A stretch of DNA of 64,000 bases from an uncultured Candidatus Saccharibacteria bacterium (GCA_964372935.1 CAYJRF010000001.1:8993-72992), one strand, 5' to 3'. Numbered from the stretch's first letter, positions 331 through 24,013 are shown. Numbers and translations: made by a program. Notes: generated by a model not told the origin, from the sequence alone.

Positions 331-1221
331 ATGAGATCCCACATGCGTCACATTCCGGTTCTGGTTGATGAAGTGCTCGAGGTGCTGGCGCCGCGTCCCA
401 AAGCGGTGTTACTAGACGCCACGCTGGGGGATGGCGGACACGCTCAAGCTTGGCTGGAAGCCACCCAACCCCTTGGTCGCGTTTGGGGGGTGGAGCAAGA
501 TTATCAACAGCTGGTCGTGGCGAAAGCCAACCTGGCCTCCTTCGGTGGCCGAGTGGATGTCAGCCATGGACGGTTTGGCGATTTGGCCAAGTTGGCGGAC
601 AGCCTGGGTTTGAAAAAGTTTGACGCAGCTCTGTTTGACTTGGGAGTGTCTTCGCGCCAACTGGCTGATCTAAAGTACGGCTTAACGTTTGACGATGCCG
701 CGCCCCTTGACATGCGATTAGCCGGCCAAACGACCACCGCGGCCGATTTTCTCAACCAGACGGGCGAAAAGACGCTTGCCGACGCCCTGTATCGCTTCGG
801 TGATCGTCACGACAGTCGACGCCTGGCCCAAAAAATTGTCGTGGCGCGGCGCAACCAGCCCTTTAGAGTGGCTGGCGACCTGAAACGGGCGCTGAAAATA
901 TGTCGGCCAAACGAGCTCGCGCCAATCTTCCAGGCCTTGCGTATTTGGGTCAACGACGAGGCCGGTCAACTGGCAGGGGCGTTGCCTCAAGCGGTCGAAC
1001 TGCTTCGTCCGGGAGGACGGTTGGCGGTGATTTCGTTTCATTCGGGCGAAGATCGCGCGGTGAAACATTTTCTGGCCGCGGCTCCGGAGATCGAATCGCC
1101 CAAGGGCGTGATTCGTCCCACGTTGGATGAAATTCGGGCCAACCCCCGCGCCCGGAGCGCCAAATTGCGTTGGGGGGAGAAAGTCTCACGTTCTACCGCG
1201 AGGTCTGGCGAGTTCAATTGA
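331..1221 (+). CDS. rsmH: 16S rRNA (cytosine1402-N4)-methyltransferase RsmH/MraW
   Basis: N-terminal HIPVLVDEVL... and DATLGDGGH SAM-binding motif; sits at the head of the dcw cluster directly upstream of ftsL/ftsI. Confidence 0.9.
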   Translation: MRSHMRHIPVLVDEVLEVLAPRPKAVLLDATLGDGGHAQAWLEATQPLGRVWGVEQDYQQLVVAKANLASFGGRVDVSHGRFGDLAKLADSLGLKKFDAALFDLGVSSRQLADLKYGLTFDDAAPLDMRLAGQTTTAADFLNQTGEKTLADALYRFGDRHDSRRLAQKIVVARRNQPFRVAGDLKRALKICRPNELAPIFQALRIWVNDEAGQLAGALPQAVELLRPGGRLAVISFHSGEDRAVKHFLAAAPEIESPKGVIRPTLDEIRANPRARSAKLRWGEKVSRSTARSGEFN

Positions 1222-1254
1222 CGCCAAAAATCGCGAAAGCCCGGGAGGCATCAT

Positions 1255-1575
1255 ATGATACCCGTGAGTTATAATCAGCGTCTACTCGGCTATAAACCGA
1301 GCAAACGTTTGGGAAATCTTGGATTCATCACCAGTCGGCTGGCTGGGTTTGTTTTGTTGGCGTCGCTGGCTTTGCTGTATATCGCCCAGTCAAGTCAAGG
1401 AGCGGCCAAGCGGATAGAAGTTCAGTCGCTGCGAACGCAAGCCGAAAATTTGGTCACTCAAGAAGATCAGTTGCGATTAGAGGCGTTGCGTCTCCAGTCG
1501 CTCGACACGATTTCTCAAGCCATCGATCCCCTTGGCTTACAGGCGGTAACCGACGTCGAGGACTCGCGCCCTTAA
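1255..1575 (+). CDS. ftsL: FtsL-like small bitopic cell-division protein
   Basis: 106 aa with one N-terminal TM helix followed by a coiled-coil-like tail; lies between rsmH and ftsI, the conserved FtsL position. Confidence 0.6.
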   Translation: MIPVSYNQRLLGYKPSKRLGNLGFITSRLAGFVLLASLALLYIAQSSQGAAKRIEVQSLRTQAENLVTQEDQLRLEALRLQSLDTISQAIDPLGLQAVTDVEDSRP

Positions 1576-1581
1576 ATATGT

Positions 1582-3288
1582 ATGAATTCAAAGGAGTGGC
1601 AACAACGGCTGGGGTTTGTTTTCACTGTCAACGTCCTAGTTTTTGTGAGTGTGGTTAGTGGGTTGTATCAAAAGTCGGTAATCGATCATCCGCAGATTCT
1701 AGGTGAGGCCGAGAAACAATACGCTTATCGAAAAACTACCGCCGGAGAACGGGGCGAGGTTGTTGTTGCCGACTCCGACAAAAACTACTTTCCTCTGGCG
1801 ACCAATGAGTGGCGTTATCAGGCGTTAGTGATTCCGAATCGTTTGGCTGATCCCTCCGCCGCCGCCACAGCTCTCGCGCCGGTGCTGGGGCTTGGTCGGA
1901 TGGATATTTTTAACAAAATTAATAATAAAAAACCGTATATTCCGCCCCTGAAGCGCCGCTTAACATTGCCCGAGGCCGATCAAGTCGCCGCCCTTCGGCT
2001 CGACGGAGTTCTTCTAATTCCCGAGCTGGTGCGCTATTATCCGGAACAGGCGACGGCGGCCCATGTTTTGGGGTTTGTGAATTACGACGGCAACGGCAGC
2101 TATGGCGTCGAGGGCGCCTACGACGCGATTATGAAAGGGGCATCGGGTTATCTTGTGGGCGAAAAAGACAACCAAGGGCGTCCGATAAGTTTGGGCGAAG
2201 AAATTAAAGCCAAAAAAGGGGCGAGCTTGGTGTTGACGATTGACCGGCCAATTCAGGAGTTTGTCGAAAAATCGCTCGCTGACGCCGTAAAGGAATTCGA
2301 GGCCGACGGCGGCACGGCGATTGTGATGCAGCCTTCGACCGGCGACATTGTCGCGCTAAGTAATGTTCCGAATTTTAACCCGAACACTTTCAACAGCGTT
2401 GGGACCGATCAGCAAGGGGTGTTTCTTAATCCGGCAGTTTCGGCTGTATGGGAACCCGGGTCAATCGTCAAGCCGCTTATTATGGCCCTGGCGATAGAAA
2501 AAAAATTGTTCGAACCAGACACTAAAGGCGTCTTTGGGGCGTCGGTCCAAGTTCTCAATCACGTCATCTGGACCGCCGAAAAAAAGGCTTTCGGGGAAGA
2601 AACGATGACCCAAGTGCTGGAGAATTCCGACAATGTCGCCATGGTGTCGGTGGGCGACAAGCTGGGCAACGAGGCGGAATATGCCGGACTAAAACAATTC
2701 GGTTTTGGCAATGTCCCAAAACTCAAGCTTCAGGGTGTCATCTCGGGGGTTCTCCCGCCGGTCAAGAATTGGAACGATTTAACTCGGGCCACGCTGACTT
2801 TTGGTCAAGGGATGTCGGCCACGCCGCTCCAGATGATTATGGCCTACAGCGCGTTGGCCAATAAAGGGGTAATGATGCAACCGCGCTTAGTCTCGCGGAT
2901 TGTCGACGATAAAGGCGACTTGGCGGTTACGGCTCCGAGGGAAGTTGGTCGGGCGGTGAGCGAAGAAACGAGTCGAAAAGTTATCGGCATGCTCGAATCG
3001 GTGGTTATCAACGGCCATGGCAAGCGGGCGGCGGTTCCGGGTTATCGAATCGGCGGGAAAACTGGCACGGCGCAAGTCGCGAATCCAGCCGGAGGATACT
3101 TTGACGATCGTCATATCGGCTCGTTTGTCGGTTTTTTTCCGGCATCGGACCCTCAATACTCGGTGCTGGTAAAGCTCGACAACCCCAAAACTGTTCGGTT
3201 TGCCGAATCATCGGCGGCCCCGACGTTCGGTAAAATCGCCGCCTGGATACTCCACCAAAAGCAGATTAAGCCCGACAAGGTTCAATAG
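1582..3288 (+). CDS. ftsI: Class B penicillin-binding protein FtsI (transpeptidase)
   Basis: SIVK (SxxK), SDN and KTGT transpeptidase motifs; N-terminal TM; dcw synteny. Confidence 0.9.
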   Translation: MNSKEWQQRLGFVFTVNVLVFVSVVSGLYQKSVIDHPQILGEAEKQYAYRKTTAGERGEVVVADSDKNYFPLATNEWRYQALVIPNRLADPSAAATALAPVLGLGRMDIFNKINNKKPYIPPLKRRLTLPEADQVAALRLDGVLLIPELVRYYPEQATAAHVLGFVNYDGNGSYGVEGAYDAIMKGASGYLVGEKDNQGRPISLGEEIKAKKGASLVLTIDRPIQEFVEKSLADAVKEFEADGGTAIVMQPSTGDIVALSNVPNFNPNTFNSVGTDQQGVFLNPAVSAVWEPGSIVKPLIMALAIEKKLFEPDTKGVFGASVQVLNHVIWTAEKKAFGEETMTQVLENSDNVAMVSVGDKLGNEAEYAGLKQFGFGNVPKLKLQGVISGVLPPVKNWNDLTRATLTFGQGMSATPLQMIMAYSALANKGVMMQPRLVSRIVDDKGDLAVTAPREVGRAVSEETSRKVIGMLESVVINGHGKRAAVPGYRIGGKTGTAQVANPAGGYFDDRHIGSFVGFFPASDPQYSVLVKLDNPKTVRFAESSAAPTFGKIAAWILHQKQIKPDKVQ

Positions 3289-3320
3289 ACAAACCAGTCG
3301 GCTATGTTACACTGGGAACG

Positions 3321-4553
3321 ATGAAATCACCGCTCGCCAAATTGATCGCGGCAGTGCTGTATTGGGAAGCGATGTTTTTTCGCTCTCGCTACCGTGGGCC
3401 GGTGGTAACAATCTCCGGCAGTGTGGGCAAAACCAGTGTCAAGGAGGCGATCGGCCAGATGACACGACGCGCTTATGGCGAGTTCAGTCTCGTAACTCCC
3501 AAAAGTCTCAACACCGAGTTCGGCGTCCCCCTGACTTTGCTGGGATTTCAAAAAACACCCCACGGATTTGGTTGGCTGACGGCGATATTTCGGGGACTAT
3601 TGACCGCTTTTTTGGGCGCTTCTCCCAAGTGCATTGTGCTGGAACTGGGCGCTGACCGACCGGGCGACATGGCCTATTTAGGACGATTGGCGCGGCCGAC
3701 GCACGCCGTGATTACGAGCGCGAGCGAAGCCCATTCGGCGAATTTTTCGAGCGTCGCGGCCATGAAAGACGAGGAAGCCGCGATCACGCGATTTGTTGGC
3801 CTTGATGGCGTTGTGGTGGTTAACGCCGACGATCTTTTTTTGGCCAAGCTTTCCGTCGCGCCCGGTCAGACAAAGGTAACTTGCCGCCTTCACGTCCACG
3901 CCGATTATTTCGCTTCCGGTACGCGAGTAACGCTCGACGGCACGGCGGCGGTAATTCACCACCGGAACCGTACCCAGCGGGTGCAAGTGTCGCGCTATGG
4001 CGAGCATCAAATATACAGCGTGCTGTTCGCGGCGGCCATCGGCGACGCCTTGGGTATTTCCCGCGATATTCAGGTGGAAACCTTCAAGGGCTTAAAACCG
4101 GTCGCCGGTCGCGGCGCTCTCTTGCCCGGACTCAAGAACAGTTGGATTATTGACGAGTCTTATAACGCCCAGCCGGAAGCGATGCGTTTGGCGCTCCAAC
4201 TTTTGGGTCAGATGCCTGGGCGTAAACGAGTCGCCGTGCTGGGGGATATGCGCGAGCTAAAAACTCCCGAGCCGGTTCACCGCGCGATTGGGGCGATGGC
4301 CCGTCAGGTGTCGGATGTTGTCATCGGGATCGGGCCGCTGGCGCGCAGTTACAAAGCCGATTCCTGGTTTTTAACGGCCCAAGAAGCGGCGCCGGCGGTG
4401 TTGAGCCAGCTGGGGGACGGTGTTATAGTTCTGGTTAAAGGTTCGCAAAACACGATTAGGCTCGAACGGCTGGTGAAAGCGATCATGCGTCAACCCGAGC
4501 GAGCTAACGACCTCCTTGTTCGGCAGGAAAAGGAGTGGCAAAAAATCCCTTAG
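3321..4553 (+). CDS. murF: Mur ligase family protein, probably UDP-MurNAc-tripeptide--D-Ala-D-Ala ligase MurF
   Basis: Intact P-loop ISGSVGKTS; Mur ligase middle/C-terminal features; lies between ftsI and mraY where murE/murF sit. Confidence 0.7.
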   Translation: MKSPLAKLIAAVLYWEAMFFRSRYRGPVVTISGSVGKTSVKEAIGQMTRRAYGEFSLVTPKSLNTEFGVPLTLLGFQKTPHGFGWLTAIFRGLLTAFLGASPKCIVLELGADRPGDMAYLGRLARPTHAVITSASEAHSANFSSVAAMKDEEAAITRFVGLDGVVVVNADDLFLAKLSVAPGQTKVTCRLHVHADYFASGTRVTLDGTAAVIHHRNRTQRVQVSRYGEHQIYSVLFAAAIGDALGISRDIQVETFKGLKPVAGRGALLPGLKNSWIIDESYNAQPEAMRLALQLLGQMPGRKRVAVLGDMRELKTPEPVHRAIGAMARQVSDVVIGIGPLARSYKADSWFLTAQEAAPAVLSQLGDGVIVLVKGSQNTIRLERLVKAIMRQPERANDLLVRQEKEWQKIP

Positions 4554-4561
4554 CCGCGCCA

Positions 4562-5584
4562 ATGGAAACTTTATCAATTTACATCAGCGATCTCAAGTTT
4601 GTGTTTCTGTTAACGAGTCTAAGCTTTGTTGTCGCCATGCTTTGGACTCCGCTGTTCACCAATTTTTTGTTTAAGAACCGTTTAGGCAAGAGAATTAGGC
4701 AAACGGGATTTGACGCCAAAGCGGCCCCGATTTTCTTTCGTCTGCATAAGGGCAAGATGAACACCCCCACCATGGGCGGGTTGTTGATCTGGATCACGGT
4801 GGCCGTCATCACCCTCGTCTTCAATCTCAACCGCGCCGGCACATGGCTGCCGCTGTTCGTGTTGACGGCAACCGGAGTGATTGGGGCAATTGACGATTTA
4901 ATGAATATTTATGGCGTCGGTCCGCATAACGGCGGAATGCAGTTCAAGTTACGGCTCCTGCTGTACGTCTCAATCGCATCGGTTGGGGCGTGGTGGTTTT
5001 ACTACAAACTCGGATTTAGTATTTTTCATCTCCCGGGCATCGGTAATCTCGATCTTGGAATACTCTACCTGCCGTTATTTGTTGCCGTCTTAGTCTGGAC
5101 GGCGTTTTCAGCCAACCAAACCGACGGTCTGGACGGCCTTGCCGGTGGCGTCATGGCGATATCTTATGTGGCGTACGCTTTTATCGCTCTCTCGGAAGGT
5201 AAAGTCGAACTGGCGGCATTTTGCGGCTCGATTGTGGGCGCGACGCTGGCGTTCTTGTGGTTTAATATTTATCCGGCGCGATTTTTTATGGGCGACACCG
5301 GCATCATGCCACTGGGCATGACGCTGGGCGTGATCGCCTTTCTCACCAACAGCGTATTTGTCTTGCCGGTGATCGGGATTATTTTGATGGTCGAAGGGTT
5401 AAGCACGGTGATCCAACTCACCTCAAAAAAACTTTACCACCAAAAGGTCTTTCTGTCGGCGCCGATTCATCATCATTTCGAGGCTTTGGGCTGGCCGGAG
5501 ACCAAAGTTACGGCTCGATTTTGGATAATTTCGGCCGTGTTCGCGGTGATTGGTCTCATAGTGGCGCTTATCGGCAAAGGATAG
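4562..5584 (+). CDS. mraY: Phospho-N-acetylmuramoyl-pentapeptide transferase MraY
   Basis: Polytopic membrane protein matching the MraY family pattern (DD and HHH motifs); dcw synteny. Start taken at ATG 4562 (METLS...); the computed ORF starts earlier at 4535. Confidence 0.9.
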   Translation: METLSIYISDLKFVFLLTSLSFVVAMLWTPLFTNFLFKNRLGKRIRQTGFDAKAAPIFFRLHKGKMNTPTMGGLLIWITVAVITLVFNLNRAGTWLPLFVLTATGVIGAIDDLMNIYGVGPHNGGMQFKLRLLLYVSIASVGAWWFYYKLGFSIFHLPGIGNLDLGILYLPLFVAVLVWTAFSANQTDGLDGLAGGVMAISYVAYAFIALSEGKVELAAFCGSIVGATLAFLWFNIYPARFFMGDTGIMPLGMTLGVIAFLTNSVFVLPVIGIILMVEGLSTVIQLTSKKLYHQKVFLSAPIHHHFEALGWPETKVTARFWIISAVFAVIGLIVALIGKG

Positions 5585-5630
5585 TCGATTGTGGTTCTGG
5601 CCAAAATTTCCTGCTATACTTGACAGTGTT

Positions 5631-6338
5631 ATGCCGACAACCTTAGTTATCCCTCATCATGTTGGTTTTATTCTCGACGGCAATCGTCGCTTTGCCAAAC
5701 TGAAGGGGTTAAAACCGTGGCGCGGGCACGAGTATGGGCGCGAAACTGTCCGCCGCCTTGTGGGGTGGTGTCGAGAGTTTGGGGTTATCGAGCTGACACT
5801 GTATACATTTTCGATCCAAAATTTTTACCGCCCGGCGCGCGAAGTCAAAAAACTCATGGAACTGATTGAGCAAGAGCTGGATATCCTTGCCAGCGACCCC
5901 AAAGTGGCGGAGAATGGCGTGCGTATTAGAGTAATCGGTAAAGTTGATCTTTTGCCCGAACCGGTTCAGCGAGCGGTTGAGCGAGTCGAGACGGCGACGG
6001 CCGGTAACGACACCTTCTTTCTTAATTTTTGTATTGCGTACGGCGGCCGAGAAGAAATCCTTGAAGCGGTCCGAAAAATCGTTGCCAAAGTTAAAGCGAA
6101 AGTTATTGACGTCAAGGACGTTACTTTGGAAATGTTTGAATCGCACCTTGCCCTTCCTTCCGAACCGGATCTGATTATCCGTACCGGCGGAGAGCGACGG
6201 ACGAGTAATTTTTTGCCCTGGCAATCGAGTTATAGCGAATGGTTTTTCATTAAAAAATTGTTGCCGGAATTTCAACGCGAAGATCTTCGCGACATTTTGC
6301 GCCAGTTCGCGAGACGCGAGAGACGTTTCGGTCGATAG
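5631..6338 (+). CDS. uppS: Undecaprenyl-diphosphate synthase (cis-prenyltransferase) UppS
   Basis: HVGFILDGNRRFA motif and C-terminal RTGGERRTSNFLPWQ motif typical of UppS; start chosen at ATG 5631. Confidence 0.85.
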   Translation: MPTTLVIPHHVGFILDGNRRFAKLKGLKPWRGHEYGRETVRRLVGWCREFGVIELTLYTFSIQNFYRPAREVKKLMELIEQELDILASDPKVAENGVRIRVIGKVDLLPEPVQRAVERVETATAGNDTFFLNFCIAYGGREEILEAVRKIVAKVKAKVIDVKDVTLEMFESHLALPSEPDLIIRTGGERRTSNFLPWQSSYSEWFFIKKLLPEFQREDLRDILRQFARRERRFGR

Positions 6339-6386
6339 TCTGTCCAAAGGGGAGGGCGTGGGAGGGGTGTGATATGATGGCCTAAG

Positions 6387-7508
6387 ATGCCACTCGACCG
6401 TTTTCGCATCCACCGACTTTTGCCGGATTACGTGTATTTTAGTCTCGTTCTGGGGCTGTGTTTGTTTGGCTTGATCATGATTTCTTCCAGTTCGGCAGTA
6501 CTGTCAGTCGAAACGTACAGTCTAAGCTACGCCATTACCGTCAAACAGGCCGTAACCCTTGTTTTTGGCCTGATGGCGATGTCGGTCATCAGTCGTCTCG
6601 ATTATCACAAATGGCGGCCGTATGCCGCTTGGATGTTTGCCCTAAGCCTGGTCCTGTTGCTGGCGGTCTTTATTCCGGGTTTGGGAAAGACCGCGAACGG
6701 CGCGGCCCGTTGGATCGACCTCGGCGCGTTTCAAATTCAGCCGTCGGAGATACTCAAACTGACTGGGGTGATCTATTTTGCCGCTTGGCTGGAAGCCAAA
6801 GGTTCGGGGGTAAAATCTTTTCGCCACGGTCTGTTGCCGTTACTGCTGTTGTTATTGCCAATAGTCGTGTTAATGATGTGGCAGAGAGATCTGGGGACGT
6901 TGCTGGTGATGGTCGTGACGGCGATAGCGATGATTTTTGTTGCCGGTGGGACGATCAGTCATATCATCGCGAGCTGCGGGGCGGGATTGTCCCTCATCAC
7001 GGGTTTGATTTTAATTGAACCTTATCGCCTCAACCGCCTGACGACGTACCTTAATCCCACGGCCGACAAACTTGGCCTGGGTTATCATATTAATCAGTCA
7101 CTTATCGCCATCGGCTCGGGCGGGTTACTGGGACGCGGGTTCGGTCGCAGTCTCCAGAAATACCTCTATCTTCCCGAACCGCACACTGATTCGATTTTTG
7201 CCATTATTGTTGAGGAGCTGGGATTTTTTCGGACCCTAATTGTGCTAGCGGTTGTCGCGTTATTGATTTGGCGGGGCTATCGCATTGCGTTTCAGGCCGG
7301 CGATGATTTTGGCCGAATGATGGCGTTCGGCATCACAACTTGGTTCGCCTGTCAGTTCGCCATCAACATCAGCGCCATACTCGGGTTGGTGCCGTTAACG
7401 GGGGTAACATTGCCGTTTGTGAGTTATGGTGGCACGTCGCTGATTATGTCGCTTTGCGCCGCTGGCGTGGTGTTGAGCGTGTCGCGCTACGGATTTGGCA
7501 AGGCCTGA
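6387..7508 (+). CDS. ftsW: SEDS-family peptidoglycan polymerase FtsW
   Basis: About 10 TM helices and conserved SEDS segments (PEPHTDSIFA, VPLTGVTLPFVSYGG); location inside the dcw cluster. Confidence 0.85.
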   Translation: MPLDRFRIHRLLPDYVYFSLVLGLCLFGLIMISSSSAVLSVETYSLSYAITVKQAVTLVFGLMAMSVISRLDYHKWRPYAAWMFALSLVLLLAVFIPGLGKTANGAARWIDLGAFQIQPSEILKLTGVIYFAAWLEAKGSGVKSFRHGLLPLLLLLLPIVVLMMWQRDLGTLLVMVVTAIAMIFVAGGTISHIIASCGAGLSLITGLILIEPYRLNRLTTYLNPTADKLGLGYHINQSLIAIGSGGLLGRGFGRSLQKYLYLPEPHTDSIFAIIVEELGFFRTLIVLAVVALLIWRGYRIAFQAGDDFGRMMAFGITTWFACQFAINISAILGLVPLTGVTLPFVSYGGTSLIMSLCAAGVVLSVSRYGFGKA

Positions 7509-8634
7509 CGCGATGAGCCAGGTTTCTCAACGTGAACCGGCCGCGCGATTAATTTGGCTGGTGGGTGGTGGAACCGGAGGACATGTGATGCCCCTTTTGG
7601 CGGTGGCGGAAATTCTACGGCGCGACCCGAGAATTAAACTCCAGTTTATCGGCACCGCCGAGGGACCGGAGGTCGATTTAGCCCACGCCGCCGGTATTCC
7701 GTTTACGGCAATTCCCGCCGGCAAGTTGCGTCGGTACCTTACGCTTGAAAGCGTGGTGTTAAACGTGCGTGACTTGGCGCGTTTGGCTCGCGGCGTCTTC
7801 GTGGCGCGGAGACTGGTCCTTAAGCGAAGACCGGCAATAATTTTTACTAAAGGCGGGCCAGTCGCGCTACCGGCGGCGGTGGCGGCCTGGTGGACAAAAA
7901 CGCCATTGGTGATTCACGAATCCGACGCCGTGATGGGGGTGGCGAATCGGATTGTTGCCGGCGTTGCCAAACAGGTTTTTACGGCTTTTCCGGCGTCAGT
8001 CTATCCGCCGTCTCTGGCAAAAAAAATCATTCCCGTCGGCGTCCCTTTGAGGCGCGATTTTGGACGCCAGTCTCGCGTTCCCAAAAGTCGGCGGCCAATG
8101 GTTCTGATAACCGGCGGCAGTCAAGGGGCGGCGGCGATTAATCGGGCTATCGGCGCAATTTTGCCCCGCCTGCTCAATCGAGTGGCGGTGATGCACATCA
8201 CTGGCGCGGCGTCGTATCCAACGATGTTGCGGCTCAAAGAAGAGTTGCCGCCGCGTTTGGCGGAACATTACGGCGTGGTTGATTTTGCGAGCAATATTGC
8301 CGATTATATGCGCGAAGCCACGCTGGTAGTGTCTCGCGCCAGCTCGACGATCTTCGAGATCGCTACCCTTGGGAAGCCGATGATCCTGATTCCATTGCCT
8401 TCGTCGGCCAATGATCATCAAGTGAGAAACGCTGAAATATTCGTGGAAAATCGCGCCGCCTTAATGTTGCGACAGGAGAATTTGACGCCCGAACGGTTGT
8501 ATGAGACGATCAGCGAACTCCTCGGGGACTCGGTTTTGAGGAGACAGCTGGAGGAGGGGACGCGAGTATTTGGAAGCCGCGGGGCTGCCCAAGAGGTAGC
8601 CTCGTCGCTTAAACGGACAATTTTGATGGTATGA
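7495..8634 (+). CDS. murG: Undecaprenyldiphospho-muramoylpentapeptide beta-N-acetylglucosaminyltransferase MurG
   Basis: LVGGGTGGHVMP N-terminal motif and GT28 C-terminal domain; dcw synteny. Confidence 0.9.
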   Translation: MARPDAMSQVSQREPAARLIWLVGGGTGGHVMPLLAVAEILRRDPRIKLQFIGTAEGPEVDLAHAAGIPFTAIPAGKLRRYLTLESVVLNVRDLARLARGVFVARRLVLKRRPAIIFTKGGPVALPAAVAAWWTKTPLVIHESDAVMGVANRIVAGVAKQVFTAFPASVYPPSLAKKIIPVGVPLRRDFGRQSRVPKSRRPMVLITGGSQGAAAINRAIGAILPRLLNRVAVMHITGAASYPTMLRLKEELPPRLAEHYGVVDFASNIADYMREATLVVSRASSTIFEIATLGKPMILIPLPSSANDHQVRNAEIFVENRAALMLRQENLTPERLYETISELLGDSVLRRQLEEGTRVFGSRGAAQEVASSLKRTILMV

Positions 8635-10055
8635 CTTCTCCTCCCCACTCGCTTCACTTCATCGGCGTTCTTACGCCGGAAATGGCAAGTCTGGCCAGCT
8701 ACGCTCTCAAATCTGGGGCGTCGGCCAGCGGTTCTGACGACCATCGCGACTCGCTCTATTTGTCTTCGTTACTCGCGGCCGGACTGCGTTTTTGCGACAC
8801 GTTTAATCAGCATAATATTGCCTCAACAACCCAGGGCGTGGTGATTTCGCGCTATTATGACGCTCGCCACCCCGAATATCTGGCGGCGGCGAAGGCAAAA
8901 ATTCCGCTGATGACCGAGGCGGAGTACGGGCGGCAAATTACTCAAAACAGTCGCCGAGTGGCAGTTTTAGGTGAGTACGAGGGGCCGTTGGTGGCGACAT
9001 GGTTGCATCATGTTTGGCGCCAAGCTCATGTTTCGGTCCAAGCGTTGACTCATTCGGTGACGGAGAGTGATGATGGTTTGGCGTATCCGTCGGAAAGCGA
9101 GTGGTTTGTCGTGCCGTTTTCGGGCTTTAAACGCGACGCGACGGTATACGAGGCCGATTTTTTGTCAGCCGACGCCGAAATCGTCATCATGCCAAGCATC
9201 CGTTACGACTACCCGGAAATATATATGACGCTCGACGATGTTTATCACGCTTATTACACCTTTGCCCGACGAGTGCCGCGCCGCGGGTTAATAGTTGGTG
9301 ATAGCGACTACGCTCGAATGAAACGTTTGCGCACTCACTTGGTTGACCGGCATATCGAAACTTACGGGTTTGACCGCGATGCCGGCTGGCAGATTCGAGA
9401 TGTTGAAGAATCGGCCAACGAGGCGTCGTTTTCTCTCCTAAAAGGCAACCAGCTCTACGGGCCGTTTACCATCCCCTGTCACGGCCGCTGTTTTATCGCC
9501 GCGGCGGCGGCGGTGAGCGTGGTATCGCTCATGCTCGAGCTTAGTCCGGCAATCATCGCCCGCGGTCTGGCAACCGTGCCACGACTAAAACGATTCGGTT
9601 CAACCTACACCGACAGGGAGGGACGAGTCATCATTGACGACCGAGCCGATCACCCCGAAACGATTGAGGCGATTTTGACTTATTGCCGTCAAACATATCC
9701 ATCAAAAAAAATTTGGTGCTTGTACCAACCGGGATCTTTTTTAAGAACTAAAGCGGAAAACGACGGCCTGCAAAAGGCCCTGGGCTTGGCCGACAACATT
9801 TTTATCGCCGATATTAAGGGCTATCCGAAAGAAAAGTCGGAAGGTTTGCACGCCCGTCATTTTGTGGCCGAGTTCCGTCGGAAGCATCCCACAACTTACT
9901 ATCTTGAACCGGAATCGGACGTCAGTCGCTTGCTGTCCGATCGGGTTCCCCGTGATGATTGCATCGTCATACTGGGGGCGGACGGTCTGTTCGATCGCGC
10001 GGCGCGGCCGTTAATTAGGAGCGTTGCCAGCCAACCGGCTGGGTTGTCTTCGTAA
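8631..10055 (+). CDS. MurC-like Mur ligase homologue with degenerate nucleotide-binding motifs
   Basis: N-terminus LHFIGV...SGSD aligns to the MurC HFIGIGGxGMSGIA...SGSD Rossmann segment, but the glycines are replaced (LTPEMASLA). The position of the GTxGKTTT P-loop reads AVLGEYEGPLVAT. It lies between murG and murB, the canonical murC slot. Confidence 0.55.
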   Translation: MTSPPHSLHFIGVLTPEMASLASYALKSGASASGSDDHRDSLYLSSLLAAGLRFCDTFNQHNIASTTQGVVISRYYDARHPEYLAAAKAKIPLMTEAEYGRQITQNSRRVAVLGEYEGPLVATWLHHVWRQAHVSVQALTHSVTESDDGLAYPSESEWFVVPFSGFKRDATVYEADFLSADAEIVIMPSIRYDYPEIYMTLDDVYHAYYTFARRVPRRGLIVGDSDYARMKRLRTHLVDRHIETYGFDRDAGWQIRDVEESANEASFSLLKGNQLYGPFTIPCHGRCFIAAAAAVSVVSLMLELSPAIIARGLATVPRLKRFGSTYTDREGRVIIDDRADHPETIEAILTYCRQTYPSKKIWCLYQPGSFLRTKAENDGLQKALGLADNIFIADIKGYPKEKSEGLHARHFVAEFRRKHPTTYYLEPESDVSRLLSDRVPRDDCIVILGADGLFDRAARPLIRSVASQPAGLSS

Positions 10056-10062
10056 CGCCATC

Positions 10063-11031
10063 ATGGCCCTGCGAGACAACGTTGCTTTGCGGGATTCTGT
10101 TTGGTTTCATACCGGCGGTGTCGCCCAATACTTTGCTTTGGGCGAGTCGGTGGGGAAGATTGTCGAGGCCGTTGGCCAGGCCGTGAAAGAAGGGCTGGCT
10201 TATCAAGTGATTGGCGCCGGTTCCCACATTTTAGTTAGCGACGCCGGCTTTCCCGGCTTAATTATCAAAAATGTTACCCGTGGCTTTGTGTTCGTGCCCG
10301 AGCGATCGCAAATAATCGCCGACGCCGGACTGTCGCTCGGGGAGTTGGCAACTCAAACCGTATCACGCGGCTATGGGGGGTTGGAGTTTTTATTAGGTTT
10401 ACCCGGGACGGTGGGCGGAGCGATTTACAACAATGTTTCGGTTGGCTCGCGGGCGTTGGGCGACTACGTTCGGAGCGCGACCTTGCTCGACGCCGCGGAG
10501 CTCGGCGCGCCGCCGCGCGACTATCAACTTGGAGGGGCGATTCGCAAGGTTGATCGGGCGTGGTTTGACTTTGCCCATCGCATGAGCCGCCTAAAAAAGG
10601 AGCGACGGCAGTCACCGACTCCGCCGATTATCTTGTCGGCAACACTCCAACTCGCCCTCATGTCGCCGGACACGCTCAAGCGGAGATTGCAGTCGGCTCG
10701 TCCCGATCGCCGGAAAAGTCCAGACGGCGGGTTGCCTCAACTGGAGTGTTTTGACAATTTGGCGGCGCGCGAAACTTTTAGGCATCGCCAAGCGAGCGAC
10801 GTGGCGCGGTCGGTGGATCGGCCGGTCTATATCGTTGACCGAGCGACGGTCAAAAACTGGCGAGTTGGCGCGATTGGCTTCGCGCCGAGCAACCCGAACA
10901 TGCTGGTAAATTATGGCCAGGGCTCCAGCCGCGACGCCGCCGCGGCGATTGAATTAGCGCGAACCGCTCTGGAACCGATCGTCGGCCAGCGTCCAACACC
11001 CCTGATTGAATTTGCCGGCTATTGGGAGTAG
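10063..11031 (+). CDS. murB: UDP-N-acetylenolpyruvoylglucosamine reductase MurB
   Basis: FAD-binding N-terminus (GGVAQYF, IGAGSHILVSD) and MurB C-terminal domain; start taken at ATG 10063 just after the murC-like stop. Confidence 0.8.
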   Translation: MALRDNVALRDSVWFHTGGVAQYFALGESVGKIVEAVGQAVKEGLAYQVIGAGSHILVSDAGFPGLIIKNVTRGFVFVPERSQIIADAGLSLGELATQTVSRGYGGLEFLLGLPGTVGGAIYNNVSVGSRALGDYVRSATLLDAAELGAPPRDYQLGGAIRKVDRAWFDFAHRMSRLKKERRQSPTPPIILSATLQLALMSPDTLKRRLQSARPDRRKSPDGGLPQLECFDNLAARETFRHRQASDVARSVDRPVYIVDRATVKNWRVGAIGFAPSNPNMLVNYGQGSSRDAAAAIELARTALEPIVGQRPTPLIEFAGYWE

Positions 11032-11093
11032 CGCGATCGAGCGGGTGCCGCCTGACTTCGCCCACTTCCCGCGTTGGTTCGGTGGGGTATGTT

Positions 11094-11873
11094 ATGATGA
11101 AGGGCAGGAAGGAGTTTGTGGGTCGGCCTATTCACCGTTTGCCCGGGGTTATTCCTGCCGGGAAGGTTTTTTCATCGCCCCGCAAGCTGGCGCCTTATTG
11201 GAGCGTGGGTTTTGTTGTCTTAGGGGTGATTGTCGGCGGTTATTGGTTCGTGTTTCAAAGCGAGGTATTTCGGGTTACGTCGGTCGAGGTGGTGGGAATC
11301 GAGTCTAGCGCCGTTGTCGCGGTGACGGGACGATTTGTTGGGGAGAATATTTTTCGACTCAATAGCGCGGCGGTTGGACAGGATTTGCGTCAAGCATATC
11401 CCGCCATTGCCGACGTAACTATCATTCGCGGTCTGCCTCGAACGGTAAGACTTTCGGTTAGCTTGCGCGAACCGAAGGTACGCTGGCAGCGCGGCGGCAC
11501 TGTTTTTATTGTCGACGCCACGGGACAAATATTTGCCGCCGGCGAGCAGCCGGAACACGCCAATCTTCCCAAAATAGTCGATCTGTCCTCCGCGCCGGTC
11601 GCCGCCGGTCAGATGATTGTGACGCCGGTGTTCATTACGTTTGTTGAAAAGCTTCAAAATCAGCTGTCGGATTTTGGTCGGGACCACATCGCCAACGAAA
11701 TTACCGAAACCACCTACCATCTCGACGTGGTGCTATCTGGCGATTTGCGCTTGCGTTTGACAACCCAACGCCCCCTTGATGAACAACTGGCCGCGGCTCG
11801 GAGTATTTTTGCATCTCATCCCGAAGCGCGGGTGATTGACGTGCGGGTTCCGCGCTGGGGCTATTGGAAATAA
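11094..11873 (+). CDS. ftsQ: Cell-division protein FtsQ/DivIB (POTRA domain)
   Basis: N-terminal TM, then a POTRA-like segment (FRVTSVEVVG); last gene of the dcw block. Start at ATG 11094 preceded by GGTGGGG. Confidence 0.7.
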   Translation: MMKGRKEFVGRPIHRLPGVIPAGKVFSSPRKLAPYWSVGFVVLGVIVGGYWFVFQSEVFRVTSVEVVGIESSAVVAVTGRFVGENIFRLNSAAVGQDLRQAYPAIADVTIIRGLPRTVRLSVSLREPKVRWQRGGTVFIVDATGQIFAAGEQPEHANLPKIVDLSSAPVAAGQMIVTPVFITFVEKLQNQLSDFGRDHIANEITETTYHLDVVLSGDLRLRLTTQRPLDEQLAAARSIFASHPEARVIDVRVPRWGYWK

Positions 11874-11879
11874 ACGGTC

Positions 11880-13553
11880 TTGATGGTCATGGAAAAGTTT
11901 TGGCGCGATGGTCCCAGAGTAACAACAAGTCTGTTTGATCATATCGTGGCCGAGCGTCGGTTGAACAATATTGATCGTTTTTTGTCCCCGAATTGGCCTG
12001 ACGATCTCCATGATCCTAGCGCTCTTGATTCGCTCTCGACGGCAGTCGAGCGGCTTTGGCGCGCCGTGGAGGCCGACGAGACGATTGGGATTATGGGCGA
12101 TTACGATATGGACGGCACGCCGGCGGCGGCGCTGCTTTATGAGTTTTTTCGCCTGGTTGGCGCCAGTGTGGTGGTGGAACTGCCAACGCGGCAGGCCGGT
12201 TACGGTCTGACGACCGAATATGTCGAAAAGTTTGCCCGCCGCGGCGTTAGCCTAATCGTTACGGTTGACTGTGGTATTCGCGACAAAACCGCCGTTGACG
12301 CGGCGACGGCGTTGGGAATGGCGGTGATTATTACCGATCACCACGAACCGCCCGAAGAGGTCGTGGATGTCCCGTCGGCCTTCGCCATTGTTAATCCGAA
12401 CTTCGGACGACGGGCTTACCCCTTCTTGGGTTTAGCTGGCGCCGGCGTGGCGGCCAAGCTCGTTGACGGCCTTATTCGTCTTTCGCCACATAAGTATCAA
12501 GCTATGATACCCGCCAATTGGTTTGGCTGGGAGTTAGATTTGGTGGCTTTGGCGACGATTGCCGACATGGTGCCATTGATCGGGGAAAATCGTCTCTTTG
12601 CTTGCTGCGGATTAAAGATTATTCGCGCTGGCCGACGCCCCGGGCTACGTCGGTTAATCGAAACAGTCGGCTTAACTATCGAGGCGGTAACGTATCGTGA
12701 CGTTGCCTACAAAATTATTCCCCCGTGCAACGCGGCCGGACGGATTGATCGTATGGACGACGTTTTTACTCTTTTGGTCAGTCGAAGAGTTGATGAGATT
12801 GACGCGGCGATCGGCCGGATTATGACATGTTGGGAACGGAGCCAGAGTCTGACTGGGCGAATGGTTGACGAAGGCAGGCAAAAACTTGATCGGCTATCCG
12901 ACCGAGGGTGTTTAGTGGCCGACGCGGGCTGGCACGCCGGTTTGACTGGCGTAGTGGCCGGGCGACTGGCCGAGGAACGCCGAGGGATAGTCGCTGTTTT
13001 AGCTCCGGCCGGCGCGGGGGTGTACCGCGGGAGTATTCGAGGGATCGCCGGTAGTCATTTGCCGGAACTCTTGGGTCAATTTCGTCATTTGCTCGTGGCT
13101 TTTGGCGGTCACCCCCTAGCGGCCGGTTTAACGATTAAGGAAGAAAACATTCCCCAGCTGGCGGCCGGTTTGGCCGACAACGGTGCGATGGCGGCCGATG
13201 GCAGTCAGGCTATTTCCGACGGCTTGATTACACCCGGTCAGACCACCCTGGAGGCGTTGGGCTCGCTTGAGCGTCTCGAACCATGGGGAGTCGGCAACAT
13301 CGAGCCGACATGGAGTTTGCGCCAAGTCGTGTTGCGAGACGTTCGTTGGCTAAAAGACGGCGCCCACCTCCGCGCCGCGGCTCTCGGTGAAGGCATAGAA
13401 CAGGTGCCGATCATCTATTTTGGCGCCCACAAGGCCAAAACGCTGGTTGATGGTTCGCTTGACATCTACGGAACCCTTGGGATTAATGAGTTCAGAGGTA
13501 ATCGCTCGCCCCAAATGATCGTGAAAGGAATGGCGCGACATGGCCAAGATTAG
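11880..13553 (+). CDS. recJ: Single-stranded-DNA-specific exonuclease RecJ
   Basis: DHH motifs (GDYDMDG, ITDHH) and DHHA1 C-terminal region. Confidence 0.85.
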   Translation: MMVMEKFWRDGPRVTTSLFDHIVAERRLNNIDRFLSPNWPDDLHDPSALDSLSTAVERLWRAVEADETIGIMGDYDMDGTPAAALLYEFFRLVGASVVVELPTRQAGYGLTTEYVEKFARRGVSLIVTVDCGIRDKTAVDAATALGMAVIITDHHEPPEEVVDVPSAFAIVNPNFGRRAYPFLGLAGAGVAAKLVDGLIRLSPHKYQAMIPANWFGWELDLVALATIADMVPLIGENRLFACCGLKIIRAGRRPGLRRLIETVGLTIEAVTYRDVAYKIIPPCNAAGRIDRMDDVFTLLVSRRVDEIDAAIGRIMTCWERSQSLTGRMVDEGRQKLDRLSDRGCLVADAGWHAGLTGVVAGRLAEERRGIVAVLAPAGAGVYRGSIRGIAGSHLPELLGQFRHLLVAFGGHPLAAGLTIKEENIPQLAAGLADNGAMAADGSQAISDGLITPGQTTLEALGSLERLEPWGVGNIEPTWSLRQVVLRDVRWLKDGAHLRAAALGEGIEQVPIIYFGAHKAKTLVDGSLDIYGTLGINEFRGNRSPQMIVKGMARHGQD

Positions 13554-14892
13554 GACACGCTATGTGTGCGGCAGTTGCGGGGAAGAATCTATCGCCTGGC
13601 AAGGACGGTGTCCCGCGTGCCAGGAATGGAACACTCTTCAGCCGTTTACGCCCAAGAAGACGTCGGGTAATCAGCCGGCGGCTGTTTTGGCGTTGACGCC
13701 GCTGGACGTGAACGCGTCGTCGGGTCAGAGATTAGTCAGCCGGATTGGCGAGTTTGATCGGGTGGTCGGCGGCGGCATCGTCCCGGGAAGCGTGATCTTA
13801 CTGGCGGGAGAACCGGGAATCGGGAAATCAACGTTGCTTCTCCAAGTTGCCCAGGCGGTGTCGGAGCGAACGGTGATCTATTTTTCCGGCGAGGAATCAA
13901 CGGCCCAAGTGGCCGGTCGGGCTCGGCGGCTCGGCATAACGCCGACGTTTCTTTTTTCCAACGAGACGCATTTGCCGGCAATCCGCGCCGCGATCGAAGC
14001 GCGGTCGCCCGATGTCGTGATCATCGATTCGATTCAAACCATTTATGACGAAACTTATCCCAGCACGCCGGGCAGCTTAGTGCAGGTGAGGGAGTGCGCC
14101 CTGATCCTGCAAACATTGGCCAAGAGCCTGGGGGTGAGTATGATCCTTGTTGGCCACATTACGAAAGAGGGAACGGTGGCCGGGCCGAAAACTCTCGAGC
14201 ACATGGTGGACGTAGTTCTAACCTTGGAAGGCGACCCGCGCGGCGATACTCGTATTTTGCGCGGGATGAAGAATCGTTTTGGGGCGACGTACGAAACGGG
14301 CTTATTCCAGTTGGGCGAGAACGGCATGGTTGGGGTGGACGATCCATCGGTGTTATTCGTTGAGTCGCATCGCCAGGCGGCGCCGGGCACCGCCCTGACG
14401 GCCGTTATCGAGGGACAGCGCCCGATGTTGATCGAAATTCAGGCTTTGGTGGCGGCAACGCCGTTTGGTTACCCCAAACGCGCCAGTTCGGGATTCGATC
14501 CCCAACGGCTCCATCTCTTATTGGCAATTCTCGACAGTCGCGGCGGTGGCGCGTTCGCGTCGTCGGACGTATTTTGCAATGTTGTTGGGGGATATAGTGT
14601 TCAAGATCGCGGGGCTGATTTGGCGGCGTGTTTGGCATTACTGTCGGCGGCCAGCGGGGTGGCGTTGCCCGCGCGGTCAGTTTTTTGCGGAGAAGTTGGC
14701 TTAACCGGCGAAATTAGACCGGCAACTTATCAAAAGCGACGCCAAGACGAAATTAATCGCTTAGGTTACCATGTTGGCGCGCCGGCCAAGACGCTGGCTG
14801 AACTGGTGGCCGCATTGGGACTAAAGGTCGCCGGCCGTCCTCGCGGGCGGACGTCGGCGAGCGTTAGCGCCGCGGAGACGCCATGGCCCTAG
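13540..14892 (+). CDS. radA: DNA repair protein RadA/Sms
   Basis: N-terminal C4 zinc finger (CGSCGxxxxxWxGRCPAC), RecA-like Walker A GEPGIGKST and a Lon-like C-terminal domain. Confidence 0.9.
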   Translation: MAKIRTRYVCGSCGEESIAWQGRCPACQEWNTLQPFTPKKTSGNQPAAVLALTPLDVNASSGQRLVSRIGEFDRVVGGGIVPGSVILLAGEPGIGKSTLLLQVAQAVSERTVIYFSGEESTAQVAGRARRLGITPTFLFSNETHLPAIRAAIEARSPDVVIIDSIQTIYDETYPSTPGSLVQVRECALILQTLAKSLGVSMILVGHITKEGTVAGPKTLEHMVDVVLTLEGDPRGDTRILRGMKNRFGATYETGLFQLGENGMVGVDDPSVLFVESHRQAAPGTALTAVIEGQRPMLIEIQALVAATPFGYPKRASSGFDPQRLHLLLAILDSRGGGAFASSDVFCNVVGGYSVQDRGADLAACLALLSAASGVALPARSVFCGEVGLTGEIRPATYQKRRQDEINRLGYHVGAPAKTLAELVAALGLKVAGRPRGRTSASVSAAETPWP

Positions 14893-15833
14893 AGAGTCAG
14901 CCGGATCTGGTTTTTCTGCTGATCGCCCTGATAGTTGCCCTGTCGGCCTACCTGATTTTTCGCCGACTGATTCACGTCTCTTTTCCATATTTTTTTCTGG
15001 GCTTGACGGGCCTGATTATCGGCTTGATCATCGGTTCGTTGGTGGGGCGACTGCTGGCGAATTTACCGGGCATTTTTGGCCGGTGGCTGCCGATTATCGT
15101 CAATGTCATTATTGCCGTGGGGGTGTTCGATCTTTTTCTGGCTCAAGCCCAAGCGGCGAGCGATTTTATCCGCGCCCTGATTAAGCGGGAGGATCGCGGC
15201 AGTCACGAATCCATCATCGACACTTCGGTCCTGATTGACGGGCGGATTGAAAGCATTGTCGAAACCGGTTTCTTGCCCGGGGGACTAATTGTGCCGCAGG
15301 TCGTGTTGAAGGAGTTGCAAAAACTGGCTGATGCCCGCGATCCGGTGAAGCGGGCGCGGGGCAAGCGGGGCTTGGATCGCTTGGCGTCAATTCGAAATCA
15401 GCCACGGCTGAAAATTACCGTGATGCAAGAACCCCAAGTCGAGGACACCGTTGACGGCGAATTGATCCGCCTCGCCCAGAAGCATAATACTTCTCTCTTG
15501 ACCCTGGATTATAACCTCAATCAAATTGCCCAAATTCGCGGTGTCCGTGTCCTGAATATTAACGCTCTGGCCAGTTCGCTTCGACCGGTCCTGCTTCCCG
15601 GGGAGGCAATTATGGTCAAAGTGATTCAAAAAGGCAAAGAATCCGGACAAGGGGTTGGCTATTTGCCGGACGGCACAATGATTATCGTCGAGGGCGGCGA
15701 CAGGGCGGTGGATCAGGAAATCGAGTGCGAAGTCGCCCGCATCTATCAAACGGTGAGTGGAAAAATCGTGTTCGTTACCCCGAAAAAAACTTCCCTTAGG
15801 GTCAAATTAGACCAAGGGCGCGGGGTGCGTTAA
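14883..15833 (+). CDS. Membrane-anchored PIN and TRAM domain protein (YacL-like)
   Basis: N-terminal TM helices, a PIN domain (IIDTSVLIDGR...) and a C-terminal TRAM-like beta domain. YacL-like genes follow radA in Firmicutes. Confidence 0.7.
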   Translation: MALESQPDLVFLLIALIVALSAYLIFRRLIHVSFPYFFLGLTGLIIGLIIGSLVGRLLANLPGIFGRWLPIIVNVIIAVGVFDLFLAQAQAASDFIRALIKREDRGSHESIIDTSVLIDGRIESIVETGFLPGGLIVPQVVLKELQKLADARDPVKRARGKRGLDRLASIRNQPRLKITVMQEPQVEDTVDGELIRLAQKHNTSLLTLDYNLNQIAQIRGVRVLNINALASSLRPVLLPGEAIMVKVIQKGKESGQGVGYLPDGTMIIVEGGDRAVDQEIECEVARIYQTVSGKIVFVTPKKTSLRVKLDQGRGVR

Positions 15834-23896: not shown

Positions 23897-23937
23897 TTTC
23901 CCGATTCCTCCTTCAGCGCGAGTTTGGGGCGATGGTC

Positions 23938-24013
23938 TGGTCAGGGTGGTGGGACTCGAACCCACGACCACCAGACCCCCAGCCTGGTGCGCTACCAACT
24001 GCGCTACACCCTG
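23938..24013 (-). tRNA. tRNA-Pro (anticodon GGG)
   Basis: The reverse complement folds as a cloverleaf: acceptor CAGGGTG/CACCCTG, D-arm GCGC-AGTTGGTA-GCGC, anticodon loop CTGGGGG, T-arm GTGGG-TTCGAGT-CCCAC, discriminator A and an encoded CCA. Confidence 0.85.

Follow-up and report, generated by a model that had tools for sequence, protein, structure and literature searches.

The cell-wall gene cluster and its MurC-derived member

The stretch of DNA analyzed here (the window; 64,000 nucleotides from an uncultured Candidatus Saccharibacteria bacterium, GCA_964372935.1 CAYJRF010000001.1:8993-72992) carries a gene for a MurC-derived protein of 474 aa (8631-10055, + strand, ATG start), which was recognized from its open reading frame (ORF) and translation, from the family model TIGR01082, from an AlphaFold2 (AF2) model and by Foldseek. 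The gene lies in the murC slot of a tightly packed, operon-like division and cell-wall cluster (331-11873), all on the + strand, in the order rsmH (331-1221), an ftsL-like gene (1255-1575), ftsI (1582-3288), murF (3321-4553), mraY (4535-5584), uppS for undecaprenyl-diphosphate synthase (5589-6338), ftsW (6387-7508), murG (7495-8634), the MurC-derived gene, a gene for a MurB-like flavoprotein (10063-11031), and ftsQ (11022-11873). The start of the MurC-derived ORF overlaps the murG stop as ATGA at 8631-8634, the ORF ends with TAA at 10053-10055, and the ATG of the MurB-like gene at 10063 is 7 nt past this stop; no convincing internal promoter or terminator was found in the cluster.

Relatives were viewed as related loci with 10-kb flanks, and the organism's own genome as the 64-kb window. 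The translational coupling to murG is conserved in relatives, and the same synteny as in the window was found in loci L001, L004, L005, L008, and L014-L020. The order murG, MurC-like gene, murB-like gene, ftsQ was seen in every family locus inspected, except where the MurB-like gene is deleted. Because the gene for the closest canonical MurC (P0044) is also located directly downstream of a murG, the family is a positional orthologue of murC, with no extra paralogue at the locus.

The murC model TIGR01082 was the best family model for the window protein (172.1 bits, E = 2.1e-50, residues 8-454 against model positions 2-442), although the score is about half the curated equivalog cutoff of 335.1 bits; the Mpl model TIGR01081 gave 52.8 bits against a cutoff of 388.7. 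The Pfam and NCBIfam matches were to Mur-ligase families only, with no cyanophycin synthetase or MurT model among the NCBIfam matches (E <= 0.01), and the significant PDB sequence matches were all MurC or Mpl, the best all being MurC. The AF2 model, made with 29 homologues, had a predicted local distance difference test (pLDDT) score of 90.7 and a predicted template-modelling (pTM) score of 0.90, and it predicts that the protein keeps the three-domain Mur ligase fold (N-terminal Rossmann-like, central ATPase-like, and C-terminal). In Foldseek this model gave template-modelling (TM) scores of 0.87-0.89 to ligand-bound Haemophilus influenzae MurC (1p3d) and 0.51-0.71 to the apo form (1gqq), and the top 22 matches were MurC or Mpl, with Mpl at a TM score of about 0.76. 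The first-pass annotation had placed the protein in the MurC slot while leaving kinship with MurD, MurE, MurF, MurT, or cyanophycin synthetase to be checked; MurC came out best both by hidden Markov model (HMM) and by structure, at a score that stays below the TIGR01082 cutoff. We conclude that the window protein is a MurC by descent and fold. The family is acidic (isoelectric point, pI, 5.8 and net charge about -10, against 7.4 and +1 in the canonical relatives) and poorer in Gly than canonical MurC relatives.

Loss of the UDP-diphosphate loop and the ATP site

Residues were compared in a MAFFT alignment of 163 sequences comprising 29 core family members, two sister-clade proteins, and 132 nearest canonical MurC cluster representatives, with Yersinia pestis MurC added for Escherichia coli numbering; residue roles were taken from H. 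influenzae MurC, E. coli MurC, and Mpl (PMC3060825). In the core family the UDP-diphosphate Gly loop and the ATP site, including the P-loop, the Mg2+ ligands, and the adenine and domain-3 triphosphate contacts, are dismantled. All of the motifs described below are on the + strand.

The remnant of the UDP-diphosphate glycine-rich loop (8655-8696, residues 9-22) reads HFIGVLTPEMASLA in place of the canonical HF(I/V)GI(K/G)G(x)GMS(A/G)LA. The loop itself is GVLTPEMA in the window and G-V-L-(T/S/N)-P-(E/D)-M-A in the core family, against G-I-(K/G)-G-x-G-M-S in canonical MurCs. Gly29, found in 127 of the 132 canonical proteins, is absent from all 29 core members (T/S/N), position 30 has become Pro, and Gly31 is replaced by E, S, or D (Glu in 16/29). 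The SGSD motif behind the loop is kept (8727-8738, residues 33-36; Ser35 in 29/29 and Asp36 in 24/29), and Asp31 of Mpl, the equivalent of the SGSD Asp, was proposed to contact UDP (PMC3060825).

The former P-loop (8952-8993, residues 108-121) reads RRVAVLGEYEGPLV where MurC has (I/V)AV(A/T)GTHGKTTT, so that the window GEYEGPL aligns on G-T-H-G-K-T-T. Lys130 and Gly129, each present in 132/132 canonical MurCs, occur in 0/29 core members, being replaced by G/A/S (Gly118 in the window) and by Glu/Asp (Glu117), respectively; His128 is His in 110/132 canonical proteins and Tyr in all 29 core members (Tyr116), and Thr131 (Mg1), which is T/S in canonical MurCs, has become P/R (Pro119). The strand-loop-helix architecture of the former P-loop is kept in the AF2 model. 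The first-pass annotation had read a Gly-rich loop lost ahead of SGSD and a P-loop without GK(T/S), and both readings were exact, as was that of an intact P-loop in MurF (ISGSVGKTS at nt 3411-3437). MurF in this cluster keeps every ligase motif, P-loop included, and so provides a control, from within the operon, of an active Mur ligase. A P-loop merely offset by misalignment was rejected, because the phmmer and profile alignments with eight solved MurCs concur with the MAFFT alignment.

The losses are greater than first stated, extending also to Glu174, Glu177, Asn194, His292, Asn293, Asn296, His354, His382, and Arg383. The former EADE(Y/S) Mg2+ site (9114-9167) is now PFSGFKRDATVYEADFLS, with the second most conserved 15-mer of the family. 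Here Glu174 (Mg1; 131/132 canonical) is replaced by P/S/A (Pro162 in the window) and Glu177 (129/132 canonical), which takes the place of the carbamylated Lys found in MurD, MurE, and MurF, by Gly in 29/29 (Gly165), while Lys167, Arg168, Tyr173, and Glu174 (window numbering) are new invariants. In the former (T/N)N(I)xxDH motif (9192-9218), now PSIRYDYPE, the adenine-contacting Asn194, conserved in canonical proteins, has become Ser (Ser189) and His199 (Mg2) has gone from 132/132 canonical to 0/29 core (Y/F/D/S; Tyr194 in the window). The former G(R)HNxxNA adenine-binding motif (9480-9512) reads HGRCFIAAAAA: His292 (adenine) is variable in the core family, Asn296 (adenine) is Ala, and Asn293 is lost. 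In the former G(V)xRRF motif (9582-9596), now RLKRF, Arg326 is kept as Arg321 (29/29), and the triphosphate contact Arg327 (132/132 canonical) is found in 0/29 core members (Y/F; Phe322 in the window).

Domain 3 shows the same mixture of loss and retention. The former DDYAHHP motif (9636-9656), now DDRADHP, keeps Asp351 (132/132 canonical, 29/29 core) as Asp337 and also His355, with Tyr352 replaced by C/Q/R and His354 (triphosphate/L-Ala; 130/132 canonical) by Asp in 29/29 (Asp340). The former FQPH(R/T)YSRT loop (9711-9755), the site of L-Ala and UDP-N-acetylmuramate (UNAM), is now IWCLYQPGSFLRTKA, the most conserved 15-mer of all. His382 (L-Ala/UNAM; His in 123/132 canonical) has become Gly in the core (Gly368) and position 383, T/R/S in canonical MurCs (Arg383 in E. 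coli), is Ser in 29/29 (Ser369), whereas Arg386, which corresponds to H. influenzae Arg380, is kept in 29/29 as Arg372. The domain-3 substrate residues of H. influenzae MurC are Tyr346, His348, His376, Arg377, and Arg380 (PMC3060825). A family signature, FIADIKGYPKEKSEG (9801-9845), goes back to the (S)ARE(K) loop that canonical MurCs have in domain 3, and its Glu401, Lys402, Glu404, and Gly405 are invariant. Another, highly conserved segment, PR.G.I.GN.D..RMKRL..HL.DR.IETYG (9276-9368), includes the new invariants Arg217, Arg229, Arg232, His236, and Asp239 and is a candidate partner surface; a nucleic-acid-binding role of its Arg-rich helix (229-240) was considered and found not to be supported, the family being acidic overall.

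Retained from canonical MurC are SGSD, Arg326, Asp351, His355, Pro356, Arg386, and Asp402. At some of the lost sites a conserved residue, acidic or aromatic, now stands instead (Glu/Asp for Gly129, Tyr for His128, Tyr/Phe for Arg327, and Asp for His354). Positions 130, 292, 293, and 296, which purely contact ATP, vary within the family, as expected of an abandoned nucleotide site. The earlier proposal that the protein is unlikely to bind ATP in the canonical way is strongly supported by the alignment, in which the P-loop Lys, the Mg2+ ligands, and the adenine and triphosphate contacts are replaced family-wide, and we infer that actual binding of both ATP and UDP has been lost.

Two proteins, P0043 and P0311 (58% identity between the two and 37-45% to the core family), form the sister clade of the core in a neighbor-joining tree, and P0043 is encoded in the context murG, MurC-like gene, murB-like gene, ftsQ, recJ. 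They have most of the new invariants in common with the core (Tyr116, Lys167, Tyr173, Tyr205, Arg217, Arg232, Asp239, Arg332, Asp340, Ser369, and the PKEKSEG signature) and are already without the Gly loop, Glu174, Glu177, Asn293, Asn296, Arg327, His354, and His382. Their P-loop is G-S-Y-G-K-(T/S)-T, and His199 is kept in one of the two. Since GK[TS] survives in a sister clade from which the other catalytic residues are gone, the P-loop lysine was lost late, in the core clade. The function changed first, and the lysine vanished afterwards in the core clade, which includes the window.

A first search identified 36 relatives with 45-58% identity in NCBI, JGI, ENA, and Logan assemblies, the next matches having no more than 26%. 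An exhaustive profile search of 1.84 billion representatives gave scores of 737, 564, and 491 bits, followed by 271 bits for the best canonical MurC, and judging from this gap the family is small, rare, and sharply set apart. A scan of genome contigs gave two family loci, and two metagenome scans gave three more short loci. The core relatives are Patescibacteria metagenome assemblies, and intact ORFs of 444-476 aa were found in more than 35 independent assemblies from the same four sources, with pairwise identity within the family of 39-88%. One member (L021, 3-949) is split over two frames on a 1-kb ENA contig labelled 'Hain-H14-01um', owing to a frameshift or a sequencing error.

The degenerate motifs, whose conservation in relatives had been left to be checked, proved to be common to 29/29 core members. 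Among these 29 sequences 44 columns are invariant, and 32 positions are family-specific invariants, defined as residues found in <15% of canonical MurCs. The identity of the MurC-like protein to orthologous loci (54%) is comparable with that of MurG (56%), FtsI (60%), FtsW (60%), RsmH (54%), and RecJ (48%). In L014 and L004, the closest pair with DNA, the nonsynonymous rate (dN) was 0.112 for the MurC-like gene against 0.162 for murG, 0.163 for the murB-like gene, 0.170 for ftsQ, and 0.168 for recJ; because the synonymous rate (dS) is saturated in this pair (> about 2.7), dN is given with an upper bound only, rather than a dN/dS ratio proper. The MurC-like protein is under strong purifying selection and as conserved as its essential neighbors. 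The most conserved 15-residue windows are IWCLYQPGSFLRTKA (361-375), GFKRDATVYEADFLS (165-179), and FIADIKGYPKEKSEG (391-405), followed by RMKRLRTHLVDRHIE (229-243), YDYPEIYMTLDDVYH (192-206), and GRVIIDDRADHPETI (331-345). All of them except 229-243 fall on positions of canonical active-site loops (FQPHxYSRT, EADExD, the ARE loop, DHxD, and DDYAHHP), indicating that the cleft has been rebuilt and is still constrained.

The MurB-like neighbor and other genes of the window

The MurB-like protein was compared with the MurB halves of seven MurC-MurB fusions, which occur among the nearest canonical relatives, and with the solved MurB 4pyt. It keeps the motifs of the flavin adenine dinucleotide (FAD) domain (GxGSN-like and PGTVGGA) and the C-terminal Glu, while the catalytic Ser of AG(S/C)xF(K/R)NP is absent in all copies of the lineage that were examined (LECFDN, LYIFDS, LQVFDS, LEMFLN, or a gap). 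Two copies have also lost the Arg of YR(S/T)S, and the core clade no longer has the His of HxN. The MurB-like gene is the fastest evolving of the cluster (37-42% identity). It is present in the window and in L004, L005, L008, L014, L015, L019, and L020, and was cleanly deleted between the MurC-like gene and ftsQ in L016, L017, and L018, which fall in one subclade of the tree, with the other genes in place. MurB has degenerated and then been lost in parallel with the changes in the MurC-like protein. Since the MurC-like gene persists in L016-L018, its function is independent of the MurB-like protein.

MraY is the most conserved product of the cluster (77-79% identity). MurF is a protein of 410 aa with an N-terminal hydrophobic stretch (MKSPLAKLIAAVLYWEAMFF); it has no N-terminal UDP-binding domain and aligns from residue 95 of Pseudomonas aeruginosa MurF. 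This short form was considered as an oddity of the clade tied to the dead MurC and was rejected as such, since MurFs without PF01225, 405-453 aa long, occur generally among the Patescibacteria matches and the short form is a phylum-level trait. A second protein of the shape, elongation, division and sporulation (SEDS) group, from the RodA/FtsW family, is encoded directly after the isoleucyl-tRNA synthetase gene (53708-54814, +), and a PMT-family (dolichyl-phosphate-mannose-type) glycosyltransferase gene is located near it (56489-57739, -). Because MurF, MraY, MurG, FtsW, the RodA-like protein, FtsI, and the penicillin-binding protein (PBP) PBP1a are all present, the clade clearly makes lipid II and peptidoglycan.

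In searches of the window with phmmer and hmmsearch on all six-frame ORFs, and with Pfam on 48 of the 50 non-nested ORFs of at least 150 aa, no murA, ddl, canonical murB, mpl, AmgK/MurU, or Mur ligase other than MurF was found in the 64 kb, and neither was ftsA or ftsZ. Two + strand ORFs (33537-34376 and 36947-37624) gave no match. Gene loss as the explanation for murD and murE missing from the cluster was rejected: the clusters of outgroup Patescibacteria are fragmented (L010 and L011), and as these bacteria scatter their mur genes, absence from the cluster proves nothing. The mraY-ftsW interval, which is often the site of murD in other bacteria, is occupied by uppS in the window; uppS is present in L014-L018 and absent in L005 and L008. 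In L014 an insertion of ~5 kb (2579-7469) in the uppS-ftsW interval encodes HIT, ASCH, CYTH, PNPOx-like, and NUDIX proteins and two inositol-monophosphatase-family proteins, which are small proteins of nucleotide or phosphate metabolism. Downstream of ftsQ (11880-15833, +) come recJ, radA, and a gene for a PIN-domain protein, not ftsA/ftsZ, in an order common to all related loci, and a class A PBP is encoded on the opposite strand beyond them.

A complete-looking type IV pilus set is encoded at 40787-47238 (+), comprising PilN, PilO, PilB-like and PilT-like ATPases, PilC, a pilin with an N-methylation motif, and a prepilin peptidase, and pilin-like ORFs continue past it, with an N_methyl-motif ORF at 48610-49380. 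Between about 26000 and 36000 the G+C content is 45-52%, against about 55% elsewhere in the window. This stretch contains four tRNA genes (Thr-TGT, Tyr, Thr-GGT, and Trp), a gene for a P-type ATPase with a heavy-metal-binding domain (30032-32227, -), an ORF of 587 aa without a Pfam match (27331-29094, -), and a weak match to a phage-type peptidoglycan hydrolase (34482-34949), and could represent an island or a hotspot of integration. The tRNA-Trp gene (CCA, anticodon at 29; 71 nt, 32715-32785, +) was called by ARAGORN, the Rfam tRNA model being silent at its gathering threshold. At E <= 0.001, Pfam gave no match for the ORFs at 21725-23998 (-), 37815-39398 (+), 39786-40664 (+), 47310-48625 (+), and 49370-50317 (+). 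The ORF at 21725-23998, of 757 aa, has its true start further in, because its 5' end overlaps tRNA-Pro (23938-24013).

Proposed function and comparison with known systems

The first-pass annotation had offered a pseudo-enzyme, an inactivated MurC in a lineage with a modified wall pathway, and a ligase with a different nucleotide-binding mode. The former two fit the purifying selection and the MurB-like gene, which has no catalytic Ser codon and is deleted in a subclade, while the third is unlikely, as the protein no longer has the metal ligands or the UDP-diphosphate loop and acidic residues occupy several of the replaced positions (Glu/Asp for Gly129, Asp for His354). We therefore consider it reasonably probable that the protein is a selected non-ligase derivative of MurC, either a pseudoenzyme or a retooled binding module, and that the early pathway of peptidoglycan precursors is altered in its lineage. 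With its UDP-diphosphate loop and ATP site dismantled, the protein would not perform the ATP-dependent ligation of L-alanine to UDP-MurNAc. The remodelled interdomain cleft might still bind a small peptidoglycan-related ligand or a segment of a partner, and the protein, probably co-translated with MurG, could act as a non-catalytic scaffold, regulator, or sensor in the supply of lipid II precursors. L-Alanine would then be added by the product of another gene elsewhere in the genome, or the step would be bypassed with salvaged preformed muropeptide precursors. MurG is described as a scaffold for Mur ligases (PMC6420597), and a structural role is plausible given the MurC-MurB fusions among the nearest relatives.

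Several points weigh against this proposal. The placement of the conserved residues in the cleft is by homology to solved MurCs, and a pure scaffold should conserve its outer surfaces over its cleft loops, so that a new catalytic function is possible. The protein could be a redundant ex-paralogue or the only MurC homologue of its genome, and the GK[TS] still present in the sister clade (n = 2) could point to a remaining importance of nucleotide binding for some family members. The closed form predicted by AF2 counts as weak evidence. Since conservation falls on the cleft loops and not obviously on the outer surfaces, the main rival is a retooled ligand-binding or catalytic function, namely a MurC fold whose cleft was rebuilt to act on a peptidoglycan-related substrate, possibly a muropeptide, a stem peptide, or a host-salvaged precursor, by a new, ATP-independent reaction or through a tight small-molecule transaction. 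Such a protein would explain why the old active-site loops are the most conserved, with the new polar or charged invariants Tyr116, Glu117, Lys167, Arg168, Tyr173, Glu174, Asp340, Ser369, Lys402, and Glu404, and why residues of domain 3 that bind the amino acid or carboxylate are partly kept (Arg372, equal to Arg386; Asp337, equal to Asp351; His341; and Asp388); it could also act alone, the MurB-like protein being dispensable in L016-L018. However, no known catalytic motif was recognized, the only matches are to Mur-ligase families with both the MurC and Mpl models below their cutoffs, and we know of no precedent for ATP-independent chemistry on the Mur-ligase fold, which counts against it. 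We regard this rival as possible but rather unlikely.

Far less probable is that the protein is still a UDP-MurNAc:L-alanine ligase that binds ATP, or another phosphoryl donor, and the UDP-sugar in a non-canonical manner. Its position in the murC slot of a clade that makes lipid II and peptidoglycan, the absence from the 64-kb window of any Mur ligase but MurF, and the retention of Arg326, Asp351, His355, and Arg386 would agree with this, but the P-loop Lys, both Mg2+ ligands, the second Arg of RR, His354, the adenine contacts, and the UDP-diphosphate loop were all lost together, three phosphate-binding positions are now acidic or aromatic, and positions 130, 292, 293, and 296 are variable as in a relaxed site. 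Alanine at Lys130, Glu174, His199, Asn293, Asn296, Arg327, or Asp351 of E. coli MurC reportedly impairs activity severely, in work attributed to Bouhss et al. from 1997. A decaying pseudogene under relaxed selection, or an artefact of assembly or annotation, is effectively excluded: many catalytic residues are gone and the short metagenome contig L021 has a frameshift, yet the ORFs are intact in more than 35 assemblies, dN is low, 44 columns are invariant, the fold is confident, the coupling to murG is conserved, and the family, with its 39-88% pairwise identity, is not dominated by near-identical sequences.

To return to the non-ligase derivative of MurC, a more speculative extension, for which we would claim only a modest chance, is that the whole clade, with a dead MurC and a MurB first crippled and then deleted, gave up making UDP-MurNAc-L-Ala de novo. 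Still having MurF, MraY, MurG, the SEDS proteins, and the PBPs, it would build lipid II from muropeptide or nucleotide precursors of a host or the environment, with the MurC-like protein and its rebuilt, constrained cleft repurposed to bind, hand over, or sense them. If true, the Mur-ligase fold would have gained a new function, and host dependence in bacteria of the Candidate Phyla Radiation (CPR) a new form.

Public names of family members (P0003, P0007, P0020, and P0028-P0030) are 'UDP-N-acetylmuramate--alanine ligase' (JGI) or, for P0003, 'cyanophycin synthetase' (NCBI Prokaryotic Genome Annotation Pipeline, PGAP). Both are probably functional misannotations, and the PGAP name appears to be one at the level of domains. 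Reconstructions of CPR pathways score a match to a Mur-ligase domain, or the alanine-ligase name, as MurC being present, and for genomes of this clade such calls are probably wrong; if so, the clade has an unrecognized second ligase or needs external peptidoglycan precursors, which bears on how ultra-small, host-dependent bacteria build their walls. Literature searches found no described degenerate MurC, no Mur-ligase pseudoenzyme from bacteria or the CPR, and no report of a Mur ligase kept as a conserved non-ligase in a bacterial division or cell-wall operon. The family is a new and conserved MurC-derived group, predicted to be catalytically disabled, in the murC slot of one CPR clade. Its stepwise losses, of catalytic residues and then of the P-loop, and of MurB by degeneration and then deletion, amount to a clean natural experiment in pseudoenzyme evolution, and a protein that seems to be kept for a non-catalytic purpose is testable material for the long-discussed physical complex of Mur enzymes.

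Among known systems, MurC itself (EC 6.3.2.8; TIGR01082; PDB 1P3D, 2F00, and 9IR5) is like the window protein in fold, as the best full-length match, and in the slot after murG and before murB; the window protein differs by its lost Gly loop and catalytic residues, its ~32 family-specific invariants, and its lower pI. Mpl, a paralogue of MurC with the same fold and a weaker match, is a salvage ligase that bypasses MurC, MurD, and MurE. It keeps GKTT, Glu178, Glu181, His210, Asn205, His323, Asn327, Arg358, Asp373, and His376 (PMC3060825), whereas the ATP and Mg residues are all missing from the window protein. MurT, of the MurT/GatD pair, and cyanophycin synthetase share the central and C-terminal Mur ligase domains with the window protein. 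Both are active ATP-dependent enzymes with intact P-loops.

At the level of the pathway, Tannerella forsythia is an analogue. This bacterium is not known to carry murA or murB and uses AmgK/MurU, and a host-dependent lifestyle is commonly ascribed to Patescibacteria. T. forsythia is a MurNAc auxotroph that needs cohabiting bacteria as its MurNAc sources (10.1101/2021.12.02.470905). The analogy fits the degenerate or deleted MurB and the host-dependent lifestyle, with the difference that here the dead homologues have been kept and stay conserved. The clearest precedent for a Mur ligase kept in a non-ligase role, as a subunit of another machine, is PAP11/MurE-like of plants: the MurE homologues of angiosperms are a peripheral component of the plastid polymerase, and Arabidopsis MurE (AtMurE) is described as having diverged in function from the MurE of bacteria and moss (PMC12681378). 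The polymerase chain 8r6s_Q was actually among the Foldseek matches of the MurC-like model. PAP11/MurE-like differs in being derived from MurE, eukaryotic, located in the plastid, and wholly outside the wall pathway, whereas the window protein has stayed in its division and cell-wall operon. On its sequence the window protein nevertheless fits the pattern of a pseudoenzyme, with a Mur ligase fold under purifying selection and its catalytic residues lost.

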